Below are positions 1-4,796 of a stretch of 4,796 nt of DNA, one piece after another. A model generated the notes under the pieces. It was not told the DNA's origin. It did no database searches and saw nothing but the letters and a program-made list of their open reading frames with translations. The DNA comes from a virus. Lineage: Duplodnaviria; Heunggongvirae; Uroviricota; Caudoviricetes. Where the stretch lies: IMG/VR virus record IMGVR_UViG_2778261227_000011. One strand, written 5' to 3'. The stretch's first letter is position 1, and each line of letters begins with the position of its first letter. A program made the translations under genes and the position numbers.

Positions 1-1024
1 AAAGCTGCTGCAGCCAGACCTGATGAATTGATGAAATGTAGGAATAGAGAACGCTGGCGTTATGTGCAACGTCGCTCGGTACAGGGGGTTTTGAAAGCTG
101 TTTCTCCATCTGGTTAAAGGCATTGATATATGCCTCTTTGAACTGGGCAGCACGTTTACCCGTGAAACCCATAGCAAGAAACGCAAAGCCGTCGCGGGTT
201 ATTTGATAGCAAGGTAGTTTGCGACCTGTGCAATCAGTGTAATCACTCACCGAAAAATTGCGGGCAGTGAATGATGCTGAGCATTCAAGCGTGCGGATCT
301 TTTTCAGTACATCGTCATGACGTTTGGAGAAGAAGTTGGCAACAGCCAGGGATGAAGTAACAGCCTGACCATCAACGATGGCAATTTCAGGTTGAGTGAG
401 GGTTGGGATCGTAGCCATGATGGCAGCCTCTTTGGTGATTTTTAATAACTCACCACCAAGGCTTTCCACGACCTTATTGGTGGTGAGACGTACAGGGGTG
501 GAAATACCGGTCACCAAAGAACCCGGCCCAACCGAAGTTGGCCCTGCACGCCCCACCATAATTTGGGCGTAATGCTGCTCATGACACAAAAAAACCGCAA
601 GAGCGCGGTTGTGCGCTTTGGTGAATTCCGGGTTTCCACGCCCGGCACCCGTTTTATAAGGTGCCTGAACAGTGTAACGTCCCGGAATGGCAGAATCAAT
701 GTGCTGGTGGTCCTTCACACTCAACAAAATCACGCCTGAATTTCCACAAAGGACTAAAGCACTCATGCGGGTAGTCTTTGCGAAGATAGATAACGCGCTG
801 TGTTTCTGGCTCCCAACGAATAACATGGACATAAAGCCCTCTTCCGTCACGAAACCAGCGGTTAAGTTCCTGCACAACTCGCCCCCCACAGTCAGGTAAA
901 GTTCTCTGTGGTTACTTACAGCCAGGTGATCTGGTAATCTGCATTCATGCCGTAACAACAGGTGTTCAGCGACACTGACCACCAGCTGTTGCGACAAACG
1001 GTTATTTGCCGTTAAACTGTTCAT
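1..1024 (-). CDS. Phage early-operon protein, partial (341 codons in window, continues past the left edge). The distal half (encoded about 1-420) is a Rha-family phage regulatory domain; the N-terminal ~200 aa are of unknown function.
   Basis: I checked codon by codon that the minus-strand frame is open from 1027 to position 1, so the six-frame track omits it because it runs off the edge. The ATG at 1024-1022 overlaps the upstream TGA stop at 1023-1021 (ATGA coupling). The translation contains ...IVDGQAVTSSLAVANFFSKRHDDVLKKIR...YQITRDGFAFLAMGFTGKRAAQFKEAYINAFNQMEKQL, which matches my recollection of the Rha (Phage_pRha) signature. An internal ATG at 418 with an AGAGG Shine-Dalgarno is an alternative start just upstream of the Rha domain. 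Confidence 0.65.
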   Translation of the reverse strand, partial: MNSLTANNRLSQQLVVSVAEHLLLRHECRLPDHLAVSNHRELYLTVGGELCRNLTAGFVTEEGFMSMLFVGSQKHSALSIFAKTTRMSALVLCGNSGVILLSVKDHQHIDSAIPGRYTVQAPYKTGAGRGNPEFTKAHNRALAVFLCHEQHYAQIMVGRAGPTSVGPGSLVTGISTPVRLTTNKVVESLGGELLKITKEAAIMATIPTLTQPEIAIVDGQAVTSSLAVANFFSKRHDDVLKKIRTLECSASFTARNFSVSDYTDCTGRKLPCYQITRDGFAFLAMGFTGKRAAQFKEAYINAFNQMEKQLSKPPVPSDVAHNASVLYSYISSIHQVWLQQL

Positions 1025-1599
1025 GCGTTAGTTTCTCCACAGACACAAAACGCCACGACGCCCGGAGCTGCACACTCGCGGGCGTTACTCTTTTCCGGCG
1101 CACAAAAAACACGAAATAACAGTGTTAAATGCTCCTGCCACTTCGCCATTACTTGGTAGCTGTTCTCTTCGATTTGCTCACGCTCAGCCTGGTCAATAAC
1201 TCCATCAGCAGTTGCCTTGCGTAAGTACTGGGAATGCTTGCCAATCCATTCTATTGACTCCATCAGCCGCTGATTAATGTCACCATTGTCAATGTCATCA
1301 ATGTCCACCAGCGGCACAAACACCCCATTACTACGACGCGCTATCGCATCCGTTACATGCCTGGTACCACTGGCATCCTGTAAAACCATGGCCCACTCAA
1401 GTGGAAAAATTTGATCCCCACCGCTACGCAGTCTGTTATGCAATTGATCTTTCGCTGGGGTGATATCATCAGATTTATACAAACCAAGAATTTCCGCTGC
1501 TTCCTCATAGCCATGAGGTAAATCAGCAATCGTTCTTCGTATTGCTGCCACCAGCCATGCTGGTTGCTTATCAACTTTCCATTCAGGTTCTTTACCCAC
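1021..1599 (-). CDS. YdaT-like regulator (functional CII analog of Rac/CP-933P-type prophages), 192 aa, GTG start.
   Basis: This is the frame of the track ORF 1021-1710, but the ATG at 1710 would overlap the Cro-like gene by 83 nt. An in-frame GTG at 1599-1597 is preceded by GAGGA (reverse complement of 1607-1611) at 7-nt spacing and lies 28 nt after the Cro-like stop. Its position directly after a YdaS-type Cro gene and its acidic region DIDDIDNGDINQRLMESIEW fit YdaT/CII-like proteins. The family assignment is from memory, not from a search. Confidence 0.7.
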   Translation of the reverse strand: MGKEPEWKVDKQPAWLVAAIRRTIADLPHGYEEAAEILGLYKSDDITPAKDQLHNRLRSGGDQIFPLEWAMVLQDASGTRHVTDAIARRSNGVFVPLVDIDDIDNGDINQRLMESIEWIGKHSQYLRKATADGVIDQAEREQIEENSYQVMAKWQEHLTLLFRVFCAPEKSNARECAAPGVVAFCVCGETNA

Positions 1600-1627
1600 G
1601 GTTAATTCCTCGTTTCTGTGGTTACGT

Positions 1628-1891
1628 TTACGCAGCTGAACCGCTAACTTTTGAATAGCACTCAGGTAATCCATCATTTGGATTGGGGTAAATATCAGGA
1701 CGCAGTTCATGAGGGGTCACGGACCAGTTTCCCAACTCACAAAGTTGTAAAACCCGTTCTGACGGGACTTGATTGTTAATTACCCAATTAGCGACGGATT
1801 GAGTGGACTTAAAACCAAAGCGACGGGCTACTTCAGATAAAGATTTTCCCGCAGCCTTTACTGCTTTCTCTGTGTAGTTTTGAGATGACAT
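1628..1891 (-). CDS. Cro-like HTH regulator of the YdaS/DicC type, 87 aa.
   Basis: ATG at 1891-1889 is preceded by AGGAG (within the reverse complement of 1893-1905, cagaggagaaagg). The translation has an HTH segment (LSEVARRFGFKSTQSVANWV) and the VTPHELRPDIYP motif typical of YdaS-family Cro-like proteins. It is divergent from a CI-like repressor gene. Confidence 0.85.
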   Translation of the reverse strand: MSSQNYTEKAVKAAGKSLSEVARRFGFKSTQSVANWVINNQVPSERVLQLCELGNWSVTPHELRPDIYPNPNDGLPECYSKVSGSAA

Positions 1892-1899
1892 GCCTTTCT

Positions 1900-1916
1900 C
1901 CTCTGAAATTCAGAGG
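1900..1916. promoter_or_regulatory. 17-bp perfect palindrome cctctgaa-a-ttcagagg at the predicted PR start / Cro-like 5' UTR.
   Basis: 8-bp perfect arms around one central base. It overlaps the Shine-Dalgarno of the Cro-like gene. It may be a protein-binding site or an RNA hairpin. Confidence 0.35.
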
Positions 1917-1917
1917 G

Positions 1918-1946
1918 ATGATGCTACTTAAAATAGCAAATTGCAA
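1918..1946 (-). promoter_or_regulatory. PR-like promoter for the Cro-like operon: -35 TTGCAA (1941-1946), 17-nt spacer containing an operator site, -10 CATCAT (reverse complement of 1918-1923).
   Basis: The minus strand reads TTGCAA-tttg-CTATTTTAAGTAG-CATCAT, which is the same layout as the pL-like promoter at 4301-4329. The predicted start is about 19 nt upstream of the Cro-like ATG, leaving room for the Shine-Dalgarno. Confidence 0.45.
1924..1936. promoter_or_regulatory. Operator site (OR, copy 1): ctacttaaaatag, an imperfect 13-bp dyad of the CTAC-N5-GTAG-like family.
   Basis: Exact 13-bp direct repeat of 1947-1959 at 23-bp centre-to-centre spacing (lambda OR-like). It sits in the spacer of the PR-like promoter. 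Confidence 0.5.
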
Positions 1947-1959
1947 CTACTTAAAATAG
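1947..1959. promoter_or_regulatory. Operator site (OR, copy 2): ctacttaaaatag.
   Basis: Identical to 1924-1936. It lies immediately upstream of the -35 of the candidate PRM. Confidence 0.5.
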
Positions 1960-1961
1960 AA

Positions 1962-1990
1962 ATGACTAGCGCGTGTGATGTGAGTAATCT
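1962..1990 (+). promoter_or_regulatory. Candidate PRM-like promoter for the repressor: -35 ATGACT (1962-1967), 17-nt spacer, -10 TAATCT (1985-1990), start near the ATG at 1998.
   Basis: Weak matches to the sigma-70 consensus, as expected for an activated PRM. The call is purely positional. Confidence 0.25.
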
Positions 1991-1991
1991 T

Positions 1992-2004
1992 CTACCTATG
2001 GTAG
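1992..2004. promoter_or_regulatory. Operator-like dyad (OR, copy 3): ctacctatggtag, with perfect 5-bp arms CTACC/GGTAG; overlaps the repressor start codon at 1998.
   Basis: Same CTAC...GTAG end pattern as the other sites. Its position over the repressor start suggests autorepression. Confidence 0.4.
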
Positions 2005-2702
2005 AAGAACAGAAGTATCCAGATTTCGCCAAGAGACTAAACGAATTGATGACAATCAAAGGAATCTCTGTCACTCAACTCAAAAGTCTTGTGGGCGTTA
2101 CATATGAAATGGCTCGTCGATACACAATCGGCGCAGCGAAGCCACGTGTCTCTGTCATGAGTAAACTTGCGTTGGCTCTTGGGGTATCAGCTTCATATCT
2201 AGAATATGGTGTTGGAGATAGAGAGGAATGTAAGGAAATGGCAAGCATCCCCAATCCAACAAAGCCCGATGTATACAGGATAGAAGTTTTGGATCTTAGC
2301 GTTAGCGCAGGACCTGGGACCTATATGCTTTCAGACTATGTTGATGTGCTCTACGCCATTGAGTTCACAACTGAACATGCCCGTTCTCTTTTCGGAAACC
2401 GTTCTCAGAATGATATAAAAGTTATGACGGTAAATGGAGATAGTATGTCCCCAACTCTTGTTTCCGGGGATCGATTGTTTGTCGACATTTCCGTTCGCCA
2501 CTTCCAGACTGATGGAGTTTACTCTTTCGTTTACGGTAAGACTTTCCATGTTAAACGTCTACAAATGCAAGGCAACAAACTAGCTGTTCTTTCGGATAAC
2601 CCCGCCTATGAGAAATGGTACATTGATGAGAAGTCGCAAGATCAGCTTTATGTTATGGGTAAGGCACTGATTCATGAGTCGATTAAATATAATCGACTTT
2701 AA
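1998..2702 (+). CDS. CI-like prophage repressor: N-terminal XRE-type HTH plus C-terminal S24 (LexA-like) autopeptidase domain, 234 aa. Probably leaderless; in-frame upstream starts at 1962 (ATG) and 1941 (TTG) are possible.
   Basis: HTH region FAKRLNELMTIKGISVTQLKSLVGVTYEMARRY. Putative RecA-dependent cleavage site Ala-Gly in VSAGPG (codons at 2307-2312). Catalytic Ser in VNGDSM and Lys in HVKRL are 37 residues apart, as in LexA. There is no Shine-Dalgarno before 1998, consistent with a leaderless PRM-type transcript. Confidence 0.88.
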   Translation: MVEEQKYPDFAKRLNELMTIKGISVTQLKSLVGVTYEMARRYTIGAAKPRVSVMSKLALALGVSASYLEYGVGDREECKEMASIPNPTKPDVYRIEVLDLSVSAGPGTYMLSDYVDVLYAIEFTTEHARSLFGNRSQNDIKVMTVNGDSMSPTLVSGDRLFVDISVRHFQTDGVYSFVYGKTFHVKRLQMQGNKLAVLSDNPAYEKWYIDEKSQDQLYVMGKALIHESIKYNRL

Positions 2703-2926
2703 TTAGGCATCTAGCAATCGTTAAAGCAAACGAGCACAGATGATAAAAGATAAGGATAGAAAATCTTTATACAAATTTTATTTGGCACATTGGTCCATAA
2801 AAATGGATTAACACTGAGCTGTTACCCTAAGTAAGAAAAGATAAAGACCATATATTATCTTTGGGTGCGTTACTAACACAAAATAAAACATAAATAATAG
2901 ACAATTCTATACAACAGGATACGATA

Positions 2927-4012
2927 ATGATTAATGAACGTACTGAAGCGACAGATGGGGTAGCAGATATGATTTCCACCAATACAAAATATTTAGTATG
3001 GAACAACAAAGGTGGTGTAGGAAAAACTTTTCTTACATATAATCTTGCCGTTGAGTTTGCTATATCTCATCCGGATCAAGATGTTGTGGTTATTGACTCA
3101 TGCCCTCAATCAAACGTTTCAGAAATTATTCTTGGTGGCAATGGTACCGGGGAAGAAAATCTAAATAAATTGCGAGACAGAAATGTTACAATCGCAGGTT
3201 ATATCAAGGAACGTTTTAGCAAATCTCCTTTGTCTCGTTTAGGAAATGAATCTTCTTACTTTGTACGGGCCCATGACGTTAATGCAAAAATGCCAGAGAA
3301 CTTATATATTCTTCCTGGTGATGTCGATCTTGATATCTGTTCACGCTTAATATCTCACATTGGCTCATCCCCAGTAAAAGAAGCATGGAAGAAAAGCCGA
3401 TCTTTGCTGGTAGATCTAATAGCATCTTTTGAAGCCGATAAAAACATTTCTGACAGAGCAAAAACATTTTTTATTGATTGTAATCCAAGTTTTGCCAGCT
3501 ACACAGAATTGGGAGTAGTCGCGGCAAATAGAATAATTATCCCTTGCACTGCCGATGCTGCATCAATTCGCGGAATAAAAAACCTTGTTAAACTTATTTA
3601 TGGAGTGTCTATTGACAAGTCAGAACAAGATGAAATGTTCTTAGATTTCAACAAAGAAGCAAAGCAAAACCTTATCGAACTACCTGAACTACACCTTTTC
3701 GTACAAAACCGCTCAAGAACTAATGAAAGTGATGCAGCAAAAGCATTCAAATCACATGCAGAAGAGATCAAAAGAATCACGGATGACCTGTTAAATACAC
3801 ATCCTCATCTGTTCACAAATGTGGCTACTTTCGAGAGGGTTCAAAATGTCAAAGATGGTAATACTCTTGCAGCAATAATAAACCATGAGGGATGCCCTTT
3901 AAGTAGGCTGCAGCATAAGAGTTACACTATCTATGGTATGGCGACCCAAGCTAATAGAGCACAAATTGAAGCACTAGAATCTGATGTTTCAACAGTAGTC
4001 AAGTGTCTGTAA
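2927..4012 (+). CDS. Orphan ParA/MinD-family (deviant Walker A) P-loop ATPase, 361 aa, on an AT-rich cargo island; function unknown.
   Basis: KGGVGKT deviant Walker A at residues 28-34 (nt 3008-3028); VVVIDSCPQSN (A-prime/switch region); LYILPGDVDLD; Walker B-like FFIDCNPS followed by RIIIPCTADAASIRGIKNL. An AGGA lies about 9 nt upstream of the ATG at 2927. An alternative start at Met15 (2969) would place Walker A at the more typical residue ~14. No parB-like ORF follows. Confidence 0.85.
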   Translation: MINERTEATDGVADMISTNTKYLVWNNKGGVGKTFLTYNLAVEFAISHPDQDVVVIDSCPQSNVSEIILGGNGTGEENLNKLRDRNVTIAGYIKERFSKSPLSRLGNESSYFVRAHDVNAKMPENLYILPGDVDLDICSRLISHIGSSPVKEAWKKSRSLLVDLIASFEADKNISDRAKTFFIDCNPSFASYTELGVVAANRIIIPCTADAASIRGIKNLVKLIYGVSIDKSEQDEMFLDFNKEAKQNLIELPELHLFVQNRSRTNESDAAKAFKSHAEEIKRITDDLLNTHPHLFTNVATFERVQNVKDGNTLAAIINHEGCPLSRLQHKSYTIYGMATQANRAQIEALESDVSTVVKCL

Positions 4013-4047
4013 TACAATAACTATGATTTAGAACGAACATAATTCTC

Positions 4048-4070
4048 GCCCGACCAACCGGTCGGGTTTT
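4048..4070 (+). terminator. Intrinsic terminator downstream of the ATPase gene.
   Basis: Stem cccgacc (4049-4055) pairs with ggtcggg (4060-4066), loop aacc, followed by TTTT (4067-4070). It lies 36 nt after the stop at 4012. Confidence 0.6.
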
Positions 4071-4300
4071 ATACTCGTAGCCTGCTTAATAACACTGTTC
4101 CTGACCCGTTGTATCCATAGTTCCCACTATTTTCCCCCAAATTATTACTATCTAATTAACCTAATAATTAAACCAAAACAAAAGACACTCGATATTTTCT
4201 ATATGTAACTACGCCACATCATCCCATCTGTGAAAAACCTTTTAATTCATAACGTTATATAGAAAACTAAAAATTAAATACACACTTCTACTTTTTGTTG

Positions 4301-4329
4301 TTGATTTTTGCTACTTTTAGTAGCATTAT
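4301..4329 (+). promoter_or_regulatory. pL-like early-left promoter: -35 TTGATT (4301-4306), 17-nt spacer containing an operator, -10 CATTAT (4324-4329).
   Basis: Reads TTGATT-tttg-CTACTTTTAGTAG-CATTAT, sharing the tttgcta...gtagcat core with the PR-like promoter on the other side of the immunity region. Confidence 0.45.
4311..4323. promoter_or_regulatory. Operator site (OL): ctacttttagtag, a 13-bp dyad with arms CTACT/AGTAG.
   Basis: Same family as the OR sites. A degenerate half-site (ctactttttgttg, 4288-4300) lies 23 bp upstream, the same spacing as the OR pair. Confidence 0.5.
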
Positions 4330-4339
4330 TATCTGAACA

Positions 4340-4356
4340 AACAACAGACTGTTGTT
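4340..4356. promoter_or_regulatory. 17-bp perfect palindrome aacaacag-a-ctgttgtt just downstream of the predicted pL start.
   Basis: 8-bp perfect arms around one central base. This is the same geometry and the same position relative to the promoter as the 1900-1916 palindrome at PR, but a different sequence. Confidence 0.3.
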
Positions 4357-4725
4357 AACGAAAGGTTGGTTGTAACACGGCGTATGGCACATGCGTCGTT
4401 AGCGGTCTGGGGACGTTAAAGGGGACAATCCACTCCTTGCTCGAGCAAACAAACCAGGTAGCCGGAATGTGCAAGTCAATGATGATGCTGATAAGACGCC
4501 TAACCAGCGTGGCGATTCGGTTTGACGCCTGGGAAGAGACCAGGGTGCAACGATGAGGGCATTTATGGAGCCGCGACAAAGTGTGGTGCCATAACTGGCT
4601 AAGTGCTCTCAGCGTTGTGGTAATCCGCGAAATGGCGCGGCGGTAAGTATGGCGGGGTTATCCTTACCCCATTAGTGGCACCGGGTTGTCAGGTTGACCA
4701 TACGCTTAAGTGACAACCCCACCAC

Positions 4726-4787
4726 AACAGCCACTGCTTTGGCGGTACCAGTTTGTACACTTGCTTCCGGCTGGTACCGCTCTTTTT
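4726..4787 (+). ncRNA. DicF-like sRNA candidate (prophage-encoded, processed from the early-left transcript); 5' end approximate.
   Basis: tttggcggtaccagtttgtac resembles my recollection of the E. coli DicF core tttggcggtatcagttttac, and it is followed by a hairpin and U-tract. The placement downstream of a repressor-controlled pL-like promoter after a leader with no long ORF mirrors the Qin dicA / ydfABC-dicF-dicB layout. The comparison is to a sequence recalled from memory, not a search. Confidence 0.35.
4741..4787 (+). terminator. Intrinsic terminator hairpin with U-tract; would also form the 3' end of the DicF-like RNA.
   Basis: Perfect 10-bp stem gcggtaccag (4742-4751) / ctggtaccgc (4771-4780), 19-nt loop, then tcttttt (4781-4787). 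There is no U-tract on the opposite strand. Confidence 0.6.
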
Positions 4788-4796
4788 ACAAAACAG

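Follow-up and report, generated by a model that had tools for sequence, protein, structure and literature searches.

An AT-rich cargo slot between the repressor gene and OL of an SfV/mEp460-like E. coli prophage holds a GiPD474-like ParA-fold ATPase gene

Genes and features of the immunity region

We analysed a stretch of 4,796 nucleotides (the window; virus record IMGVR_UViG_2778261227_000011, Caudoviricetes), which belongs to an SfV/mEp460-like prophage of E. coli. The features of the window that bear on the slot behind the repressor gene are as follows.

1021-1599: cII/YmfL-like gene
1628-1891: cro-like gene
1922-1961: OR operators, a pair of 17-bp sites in the gap that separates the divergently oriented cro-like and repressor genes (repeat search)
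1998-2702, plus strand: cI-type repressor gene, LexA-like, HTH_3 and Peptidase_S24 domains (Pfam, RefSeq annotation)
2703-2896: lineage-specific AT-rich spacer, about 30% GC (composition, homology)
2897-2926, plus strand: 30 nt upstream that travel with the ParA-like gene (blastn to a Salmonella-type locus)
2916-2919, plus strand: AGGA, ribosome-binding site of the ParA-like gene
2927-4012, plus strand: gene for a GiPD474-like ParA/MinD-fold ATPase of 361 aa (Pfam, homology, predicted fold)
4048-4072, plus strand: intrinsic terminator, 8-bp GC-rich stem and T run
4073-4257: AT-rich, C-skewed spacer, present with the GiPD474-like cargo only
4286-4329, plus strand: OL operators overlapping the putative pL; part of the immunity module, outside the cargo
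4301-4306 and 4324-4329: putative pL hexamers TTGATT and CATTAT, 17-nt spacer (direct sequence reading)
4356-4796, plus strand: non-coding, conserved pL leader, about 53% GC, forming the right-hand scaffold

The operators consist of two 17-mers on either side of the repressor gene and its cargo: TGCTACTTAAAATAGCA (1922-1938) and AACTACTTAAAATAGAA (1945-1961) in OR, and TTCTACTTTTTGTTGTT (4286-4302) and TGCTACTTTTAGTAGCA (4309-4325) in OL, with a spacing of 23 bp in both pairs. Together, OR and OL form a 47-nt inverted repeat (OL arm 4283-4329), and the operator core pattern had 11 matches versus 0.8 expected, a number equalled in none of 200 shuffles. The initial annotation had placed OL operators at the right end of the island, and the two 17-mers, mirrored at OR by the inverted repeat, bear this out. 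The pL leader beyond them, closed by a hairpin and U-run at 4741-4787, is common even to the hetero-immune phage mEp460.

Apart from the ParA-like gene, the short open reading frames of both spacers had no support. The spacer at 4073-4257 had no credible open reading frame and no Rfam match, and an Rfam search at E values up to 1 found no RNA family within the island, all matches lying at 476-677.

Composition and edges of the AT-rich island

The G+C content of positions 2703-4340 is 35.7% (585/1638), versus 47.2% (1490/3158) in the remainder of the window (chi-square 57.3, p = 3.7e-14). Thus, the AT-rich island described in the initial annotation is real and beyond chance, and its composition differs significantly from that of its flanks, but several details of that description were too strong. 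When 20.8 kb of this prophage in E. coli C311 were scanned, the 1638-nt stretch with the lowest GC (35.65%) coincided with the island to within about 20 nt; the runner-up (36.6% GC) was close to the prophage end.

The left flank, said to be roughly 50% GC, measured 46.3% (positions 1-2702), with 43.9% in the cro-like gene, 37.7% in OR and 42.7% in the repressor gene, whose final 200 nt have about 39.5%. The intergenic stretches, said to be in the low 20s, have 30.4% (2703-2926) and 32.3% (4013-4340) GC, with 20-26% reached in single 50-nt windows only. Of the two edges described as sharp, the right one is indeed so, with 30% GC at 4300-4349 and 48-54% beyond 4350, while the left one is gradual: in a maximum-likelihood two-breakpoint fit, the breaks fell at about 2515 on the left, within the repressor gene, and at about 4375 on the right. 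The ParA-like gene itself has 37.8% GC overall, and its GC3 is 27.9%, versus 39% in the repressor gene and 43% in the cII-like gene.

By homology, both edges were found where the annotation had them. Similarity to three sister prophages stops at 2695-2705, which is the repressor stop codon TAA (2700-2702), and returns at 4258-4284, immediately before the OL operators; general scaffold similarity returns at 4356. A repeat search of the window found no direct repeats around the cargo, and thus no sign of transposition or site-specific insertion. More likely, the cargo is exchanged through recombination in the conserved sequences on its two sides, the repressor 3' end and OL.

Identity and fold of the cargo protein

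The cargo protein matched Pfam AAA_31 (3e-16) and CbiA, and PHROG 164 'ParA-like' at 2e-46. It has a deviant Walker A motif KGGVGKT (residues 28-34), a Walker A' aspartate (D57) and a Walker B aspartate (D184), and K28, the Walker A residues K33/T34, D57 and D184 are invariant across 35 homologues. The AlphaFold2 model had a mean pLDDT of 86.5 and a pTM of 0.89, and the top PDB matches of this model in Foldseek were Soj, pSM19035 delta, McdA and ParA (probability 1.00, target TM 0.66-0.78). The protein shares with ParA, Soj and MinD the fold, the signature lysine of KGGxGKT and the Walker A' and Walker B aspartates. Unlike them, it is about 100 residues longer, with insertions that form helices 74-118 and 135-170, has a C-terminal beta-hairpin and helix, has no ParB or MinE-type partner gene beside it, and scores far under the NCBIfam cut-offs of every named ParA/MinD family.

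Sequence identity to solved ParA/Soj structures is 12-19%. The BLASTP alignment with B. subtilis Soj covered residues 24-221 only and ended before R264, and among PDB sequences the family profile matched 3pg5 and 8ray no further than the P-loop region. No nuclease, membrane or toxin domain is present in the cargo protein. PADLOC v2 (2023) had no model for it, the sole match being Drt5 at an E value of 0.007, which is noise; run on the cargo and alternative cargo proteins together, it returned PDC-M28B (P-loop only) and weak LmuB coiled-coil matches, nothing meaningful.

The cargo protein shares 93% identity, over its full 361 aa, with P0133, P0126, P0134 and P0001 of S. Typhimurium, which fall in the same 90% cluster. 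Their relation to GiPD474 was established through its published knock-out primers: the primer arms translate to DNGRVEATDRPTE and ALESDVSTVVKC, which are the exact termini of those Salmonella proteins, and the 93% figure refers to these termini-matching proteins. GiPD474 (gene gipd474, STM474_RS13505, Salmonella Typhimurium 4/74; Bosma, Noireaux and Bowden, Appl Environ Microbiol 2025, PMC12724215) is a single-gene defence of Gifsy-1 against phages FO1, Alf5 and T4, and the reports of reduced plating on expression alone concern the Salmonella protein. The gene is 1086 bp long, encodes GGVGKT at residues 29-34 and has cII, cro and the repressor gene as neighbours; in S. Typhimurium 4/74 its expression stays above 500 TPM for the whole of exponential growth and rises further under several stresses (PMC12724215).

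The gene in the window agrees with gipd474 in length (361 aa, 1086 bp), in an AAA_31 ATPase domain whose Walker A GGVGKT occupies residues 29-34, in the ParA/MinD fold, and in its setting as a single gene directly 3' of a prophage repressor gene near cro-like and cII/YmfL-like genes. The GiPD474 paper takes as homologues proteins of at least 70% identity and at least 70% coverage to GiPD474, and the identity to the termini-matching proteins is 93% over 361 aa. Differences affect 7% of the residues and are concentrated in the first 18 residues and around 299-304. The surroundings also differ: here the gene belongs to an E. coli prophage of SfV/mEp460/CPS-53-like type whose repressor is a LexA-like S24 protein, whereas GiPD474 comes from a phage of Gifsy type, for which the Salmonella-type contig shows a short repressor of 155 aa, and the flanking intergenic DNA and the terminator are unrelated. 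On these sequence grounds, we identify the cargo gene as an orthologue of gipd474. The GiPD474-like defence gene family is already published (November 2025), E. coli homologues included, which were placed in its Clade I (PMC12724215); our literature search on the family found nothing beyond that paper. The initial annotation had not identified the cargo as a homologue of a published anti-phage gene.

Distribution of the cargo and behaviour of the slot

The repressor allele (at least 99% identity) was found in 71 of 5,426 E. coli genomes, the island in 71, and the junction of the two in 71, so the cargo travels with its immunity module. Sister prophages with a repressor gene 80-92% identical in DNA and a near-identical OL, on the other hand, carry unrelated cargo in the same place. 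This cargo is either small unknown genes, as in strains ACN002 and TUM9812, or ParA2 (109 genomes), and all the alternative cargos are AT-rich (36.5-40.7% GC). ParA2 (WP_000167381.1) occupies the same slot before the same OL, behind a repressor gene that is 92% DNA-identical, and it is likewise a ParA-family protein (358 aa, gene 37.7% GC), but it is only 23% identical to the GiPD474-like protein of the window. It has a relative in orf23 of the P22-like phages SE1 and ST160, and no name for it was found in the literature searched.

The GiPD474-like gene also lies behind unrelated repressors, namely in a Salmonella-type contig, in Klebsiella phage ST11-VIM1phi8.2 and in Pseudomonas phage phi297. 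The DNA common to the window and the Salmonella-type locus is the open reading frame with 30 nt upstream only (blastn 2897-4013, 80.6%), and the spacer at 2703-2896 has no DNA in common with the Salmonella-type or Klebsiella loci. Other homologues are found within a type I restriction-modification locus with RhuM (Azospirillum), next to HicAB in a prophage (Acinetobacter), or alone amid housekeeping genes. The gene is AT-rich relative to its flanks in six of seven loci from very different hosts; the Acinetobacter locus is nearly level.

Taken together, the results support the view that the island is horizontally exchangeable cargo (a moron) within a conserved regulatory scaffold, as had been proposed from its composition. 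The cargo has a distinct GC3, it is replaced at the same position in close relatives rather than being there in all related prophages, and the same gene recurs behind unrelated repressors.

Transcription and proposed function

No terminator was found between the repressor gene and the cargo gene. A promoter-like match at 2898-2925 is weak (9/12), and such matches are fewer in the region than in shuffles. Because the two genes have the same direction, with no terminator between them and a strong one right after the cargo, the gene geometry suggests co-transcription: in the lysogen, the repressor (pRM) transcript would most likely include the cargo gene at its distal end, which would keep the gene active for as long as the prophage is repressed. 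The 224-nt gap could also hold a separate weak promoter, which may add to this transcription. The terminator at 4048-4072 would end the repressor-cargo transcription unit before OL.

We consider it highly probable that the island as a whole is the cargo compartment of a lambdoid immunity module, in the variable space between the repressor gene and OL/pL, and that it holds a gipd474 orthologue, which would be co-transcribed with the repressor gene and act as a defence ATPase. In this proposal, composition, junctions, gene identity, fold and distribution come from the present analysis, and phenotype and expression come from the literature on the 93% orthologue, which in Salmonella Gifsy-1 protects the lysogen by itself against certain incoming phages (FO1, Alf5, T4). 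Since K28, K33/T34, D57 and D184 are invariant, the protein is likely to undergo ATP-dependent sandwich dimerisation and hydrolysis as ParA, Soj and MinD do. Its action probably follows adsorption and involves no degradation, the protein binding instead, in an ATP-dependent manner, to DNA or to a protein of the phage or host. The idea of DNA binding comes from R264-T-N, between a strand and a helix, which we take from its topology to resemble the surroundings of Soj R189.

Alternative explanations

The initial annotation had also pointed to H-NS, which would bind the AT-rich cargo and silence it, leaving it to be expressed under particular conditions only. The island does fall in the range that H-NS prefers, at 35.7% GC versus about 51% for the E. 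coli genome. Matches to the high-affinity H-NS motif TCGATAAATT (up to two mismatches) numbered 8 versus 6.6 expected, which is no enrichment and carries little information. The stress response of the orthologue would suit such silencing, but its more than 500 TPM in exponential growth (PMC12724215) argues against it and fits expression from the lysogen, as does the place of the cargo directly 3' of the repressor gene with no terminator between them. We therefore regard silencing as improbable. It is still less probable that low GC is simply the normal composition of an immunity region and that the gene is ancestral to the phage lineage. The whole immunity module is GC-poor (cro-like gene, repressor gene and OR alike), the composition changes gradually at the left edge, and repressor allele and island are linked 71 to 71, all of which would fit an ancestral gene. 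Yet the GC3 of the cargo is well below that of the repressor gene, sisters with near-identical OL hold unrelated cargo at exact breakpoints, and the gene lies behind unrelated repressors in other genera with the open reading frame alone in common and, except at the nearly level Acinetobacter locus, is AT-rich relative to its flanks.

The ParA fold with its intact deviant Walker A, together with the PHROG and RefSeq label 'ParA-like partition protein', could also mean that the protein segregates the prophage in an extrachromosomal, plasmid-like state, such as P1 or N15 have, and one of the 175 places where the locus was found is on a plasmid-classed record. The other 174 are chromosomal. Neither the window nor the 8 kb flanking it on each side in C311 contains a gene for ParB or another centromere-binding protein, and the next gene there, yfdP, begins about 900 nt downstream; no parS-like repeat array was found, the repressor operators being the only repeat family; and the NCBIfam ParA_partition score is 48.9 versus a cut-off of 180. 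Homologues alone amid housekeeping genes or within a restriction-modification locus, and the direct anti-phage phenotype of the orthologue (PMC12724215), likewise speak against partition. We rejected a ParABS partition ATPase for the lack of a partner gene and of centromere repeats and for the chromosomal location, and this is the least probable of the readings considered.

ParA-type proteins bind DNA, and the place beside the repressor gene is kept across unrelated phages, so the protein might instead modulate the lysis-lysogeny switch of its own prophage, for example by binding near OL or OR, with exclusion as a side effect. Lambda RexA has such a second role (PMC11077077). However, GiPD474 expressed alone from a plasmid protects both LT2 and E. 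coli K-12 with no prophage needed (PMC12724215), and homologues are also found outside prophages, which makes a switch modulator very unlikely. The reading as a defence gene in the cargo compartment of the immunity module is the one that we retain.

Relation to known systems and implications

It is long established that exclusion genes such as rexAB, BstA and remAIN collect between repressor gene and pL, which makes this slot a mosaic hotspot. In lambda, rexA-rexB lie in this slot, between the repressor gene and OL/pL, in the direction of the repressor gene and followed by a terminator; they are expressed in the lysogen, exclude other phages and have a GC content below that of the phage backbone. 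Unlike the cargo here, they encode a pair of unrelated proteins, one a DNA-binding sensor and the other a membrane protein, with no ParA fold and no sequence relationship to it. The post-repressor slot is described as a known hotspot in bioRxiv 10.1101/2020.07.13.199331, with rexAB, BstA and Degnan 2007. BstA of Salmonella phage BTP1 is closer in layout, as a single-gene prophage defence 3' of the repressor gene with a presumed repressor promoter, high expression in lysogeny, and synteny with the repressor kept across diverse Gram-negative bacteria (bioRxiv 10.1101/2020.07.13.199331). The BstA protein is unrelated, and the bstA gene contains a DNA self-immunity element, aba.

Because the slot is a known variable one and a relative of its cargo was described in 2025, the island is an ordinary case, and its value as a discovery is limited. 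What the slot offers for comparison is that two lineages with only 23% identity, GiPD474-like (71 E. coli genomes) and ParA2 (109), alternate in it behind near-identical operators. More distant relatives are found behind repressors in Klebsiella and Pseudomonas phages and within a restriction-modification island. These findings raise the possibility, which we hold only tentatively and think rather unlikely, that ParA-fold ATPases have been recruited repeatedly as prophage immune effectors and form a general class of them. If both lineages do defend, the ParA chemistry common to them would represent a new way of excluding phages, with neither nuclease nor membrane effector, namely ATP-dependent dimerisation on DNA or on a partner protein. 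The series of ParA1, ParA2 and small-gene alleles behind one immunity type is a clean comparative system for the mechanism of a ParA-only defence. About 1.3% of the complete E. coli genomes carry the GiPD474-like allele and a further 2% carry ParA2, and such strains may be resistant to phages of the T4-like and Felix O1-like groups, a point of some practical value for phage therapy and typing.

Prophage setting, operators and the pL leader

Over its full length (100%), the window is 99.7% identical to a stretch of the E. coli C311 chromosome, where it falls in the early part of a lambdoid prophage resembling SfV, mEp460 and CPS-53; thousands of E. coli prophages matched parts of it. The genes and sites are arranged as follows.

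up to 1024, minus strand: Rha-family gene
1021-1599, minus strand: cII/YmfL-like gene
1628-1891, minus strand: cro-like gene
between the cro-like gene and the repressor gene: OR
1998-2702, plus strand: LexA-like repressor gene (HTH_3 and Peptidase_S24)
2927-4012, plus strand: gene for a 361-aa 'ParA family protein'
4301-4306 (TTGATT), 17-nt spacer, 4324-4329 (CATTAT): putative pL overlapped by OL, read directly from the sequence
from the 'ParA family protein' gene to yfdP, itself outside the window: non-coding DNA

The repressor operators that the initial annotation had placed at OL were confirmed by paired 17-bp sites, 23 bp apart, at OL (4286-4302 and 4309-4325) and at OR (1922-1938 and 1945-1961), which jointly form a 47-nt inverted repeat, and by the strong over-representation of the operator core pattern (11 matches versus 0.8 expected). 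A palindrome at 1992-2004, CTACCTATGGTAG, also resembles an operator, differing from the core at one position. It overlaps the annotated repressor ATG at 1998 and might be a third OR site, or else indicate that the repressor transcript is leaderless.

On the minus strand, Rfam matched a C4 antisense RNA at 476-563 (83.6 bits, E 4e-16), isrK at 588-664 (67.9 bits) and, weakly, a c4 a1/b1 target at 625-677. All these matches (476-677) fall within the RefSeq 383-aa 'Rha family' CDS (window <1-1024). The first ~200 codons of this ORF do not look protein-like, and a canonical Rha N-terminus (MATIPTLTQPEIAIVDG...) begins only at position 418, at an internal ATG that has a GAGG ribosome-binding site. 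The CDS has probably been annotated too far upstream, across a P1 immI-like c4/isrK leader controlling an antirepressor-type gene.

Downstream of pL, a GC-rich (52.6%), non-coding leader on the plus strand (4356-4796 in the window) runs for ~570 nt to yfdP at ~4925 (locus L001), with conservation extending to the hetero-immune phage mEp460. Its RNA folds better than shuffled sequences (z = -2.7), and its last element is a 13-bp hairpin with a U-run (4741-4787) that is invariant in five relatives; it matched no Rfam family. Because there is no N-like gene after pL, the early leftward transcript may rely for antitermination on an RNA-based or some other device.

An AT-rich cargo compartment between the repressor gene and OL

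The initial annotation had described 2703-4340 as an AT-rich island, and its composition bears this out: it has 35.7% GC versus 47.2% elsewhere in the window (chi-square 57.3, p 3.7e-14) and is the lowest-GC stretch of its size within 20.8 kb of prophage, although another one, near the prophage end, is almost as low (36.6%). While the drop is real, the GC values first given for it were too extreme, since the left flank has 46% GC, the repressor gene 42.7% (~39.5% in its last 200 nt) and the two intergenic parts 30.4% and 32.3%, with 20-26% found only in single 50-nt windows. Of the two edges said to be sharp, the right one is so by composition (~4350), whereas the left one is gradual, a two-breakpoint likelihood fit placing it at ~2515.

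Alignment to sister prophages did set the edges at the repressor stop codon and OL. In the E. coli ST69, ACN002 and TUM9812 prophages, whose repressor genes share 80-92% DNA identity with that of the window, similarity to the window stops at 2695-2705, the repressor stop codon, and picks up again at 4258-4284, just before an almost identical OL. In mEp460, similarity breaks at 1145 and returns at 4356. These breakpoints show a nested structure, in which a 1.55-kb cargo compartment (~2705-4257) lies inside a 3.2-kb immunity cassette (~1146-4355), itself inside a conserved backbone. No direct repeats were found flanking the cargo, and cargos were most likely exchanged by recombination within the 3' end of the repressor gene and OL, which are both conserved. 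The ST69-type prophage also carries an extra ~1-kb segment between OL and the conserved leader (L003, 6245-7291), with a minus-strand gene for a 167-aa hypothetical protein (WP_000357060.1); this segment makes up another variable slot, immediately downstream of pL.

The cargo gene is identified as an orthologue of gipd474

The window protein matched Pfam AAA_31 and CbiA and PHROG 164 ('ParA-like partition protein'), scored well under the threshold of each named ParA/MinD family in NCBIfam, and had no model in PADLOC v2. The partition-ATPase label in databases is misleading for a chromosomal gene with neither ParB nor a centromere.

GiPD474 is encoded by a 1086-bp single gene in the Gifsy-1 immunity region of S. 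Typhimurium 4/74 and its ATPase domain, which is ParA/MinD-like, carries GGVGKT as residues 29-34 (Bosma, Noireaux and Bowden, Appl Environ Microbiol 2025; PMC12724215). Deletion of gipd474 restored Felix O1 plating, and plasmid-expressed GiPD474 in E. coli K-12 lowered the plating of T4 and Alf5 by ~5 logs, with T7, SP6 and others unaffected; its homologues adjoin cII, cro and repressor genes, and Clade I takes in Salmonella and E. coli (PMC12724215). The window protein falls in the same 90%-identity cluster as S. Typhimurium proteins, to which it is 93% identical over the full 361 aa, and the gipd474 knock-out primers (PMC12724215 supplement) translate to DNGRVEATDRPTE and ALESDVSTVVKC, the exact ends of those Salmonella proteins. 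The identity and the primer-end match together identify the window gene, at the level of sequence, as a gipd474 orthologue, the link to GiPD474 itself running through the primer-encoded termini.

The AlphaFold2 model was confident (pLDDT 86.5, pTM 0.89) and showed a ParA/Soj/McdA fold made larger by inserted helices and by a beta-hairpin and helix at the C-terminus. In 35 homologues spanning Enterobacterales to Azospirillum, K28, K33, D57 and D184 are invariant, as are N261-x-S263-R264 after strand 254-262 and the four cysteines C59 (in D-x-C-P-Q), C138, C185 (in I-D-C-N-P-S) and C207 (in P-C-T-A-D), which could belong to a metal or redox site if they cluster in the fold. The topology suggests that R264 may correspond to the DNA-binding arginine of Soj; a BLASTP alignment to a Soj sequence stopped short of R264. 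No nuclease, membrane or toxin domain was seen. The protein would act as an ATP-dependent dimer binding DNA or a phage or host protein, presumably after adsorption. A block after adsorption is likewise suggested by the authors of the GiPD474 study, who describe its mechanism as unknown (PMC12724215).

Expression of the cargo gene

The initial annotation had remarked that AT-rich cargo of this kind is often silenced by H-NS and only conditionally expressed. The cargo gene has the same orientation (plus) as the repressor gene, no terminator was found by scan between them, a good terminator follows the cargo gene at 4048-4072, and a weak promoter-like match lies upstream of it at 2898-2925. This geometry mirrors that of lambda cI-rexA-rexB and that of BstA, which is presumed to use the repressor promoter (bioRxiv 10.1101/2020.07.13.199331). 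By the same geometry, the cargo gene would be transcribed in the lysogen from the repressor promoter, possibly with the weak match as a promoter of its own. The orthologue is strongly expressed in exponential growth, above 500 TPM (PMC12724215), which agrees with such lysogen transcription and argues against H-NS silencing. A high-affinity H-NS motif was not enriched in a scan.

Mobility of the gene and exchange of the cargo

In a short contig encoding the Salmonella-type protein, the repressor ahead of the gene is a different one, of 155 aa. At the DNA level, this contig resembles the window only over 2897-4013 (the ORF and the 30 nt before it, which include the ribosome-binding site); its spacers and terminator are unrelated. 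Klebsiella phage ST11-VIM1phi8.2 (83% protein identity) and Pseudomonas phage phi297 (38%) carry the gene immediately behind an unrelated repressor gene in the same direction, with DNA similarity to the Klebsiella locus confined to the ORF. Among the 1,042 matches in the family, homologues of 55-69% identity occur in Campylobacter, Aggregatibacter (alone between housekeeping genes), Acinetobacter (in a prophage, adjoining HicAB), Moraxella and Azospirillum. The Azospirillum thiophilum homologue (L012, CP012401.1, 4001-5038; 58% identical) lies within a type I restriction-modification locus in the order HsdR, IS1595 transposase, homologue, HsdS, RhuM, HsdM, a setting typical of defence islands and not part of a prophage. 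At six of the seven loci examined, GC content is clearly lower in the gene than in its flanks (38.6 versus 52.5% GC in Klebsiella, 52.1 versus 62.2% in phi297, 45.5 versus 61.5% in Azospirillum), the Acinetobacter locus being nearly level (34.3 versus 35.4%). These loci, contexts and compositions fit a defence gene that moves horizontally.

Among 5,426 complete E. coli genomes, a repressor gene of the window's family was present in 206, at 99% identity or more in 71. The island was present over at least 80% of its length in 71 genomes and the repressor-island junction fragment in 71, the remaining matches ending at the stop codon; therefore, the cargo is tightly linked to a single repressor allele. 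Two E. coli genomes, PEC165 (NZ_CM168018.1, H66) and APEC E18005 (NZ_CP126947.1, H52), have unusual island copies: in one, an IS4-like ISVsa5 element interrupts the island, and in the other a 205-kb record, classed as a plasmid, carries the island in full.

In sister alleles, the slot holds either a second ParA-family gene, ParA2 (109 genomes; protein 23% identical to the window protein), or pairs of small unknown genes, all alternative cargos being AT-rich (36.5-40.7% GC). ParA2 of E. coli ST69 (WP_000167381.1, 358 aa; L003, NZ_CP102488.1, 4932-6008) lies behind a repressor gene 92% identical in DNA to that of the window, with the same OL; its relatives are orf23 of the P22-like phages SE1 and ST160 (60%) and a filamentous phage Pf1 gene (~31%). 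Composition differs from the flanks and related prophages do not all carry the gene, the two points on which the initial annotation had made its claim depend.

Its reading of a moron in a regulatory scaffold is supported by the exact breakpoints, the swapped cargos and the occurrence of the gene behind unrelated repressors. The observation is correct, and what it concerns is ordinary and previously described: the island is a defence moron that occupies the repressor-pL hotspot, where rexAB, BstA and remAIN are precedents (PMC12724215; bioRxiv 10.1101/2020.07.13.199331), and the cargo gene is orthologous to one already published, for which homologues in E. coli had been reported as well. Beyond the published paper, the allelic series of cargos behind one immunity type, notably ParA2 in 109 genomes, is a lead rather than a result.
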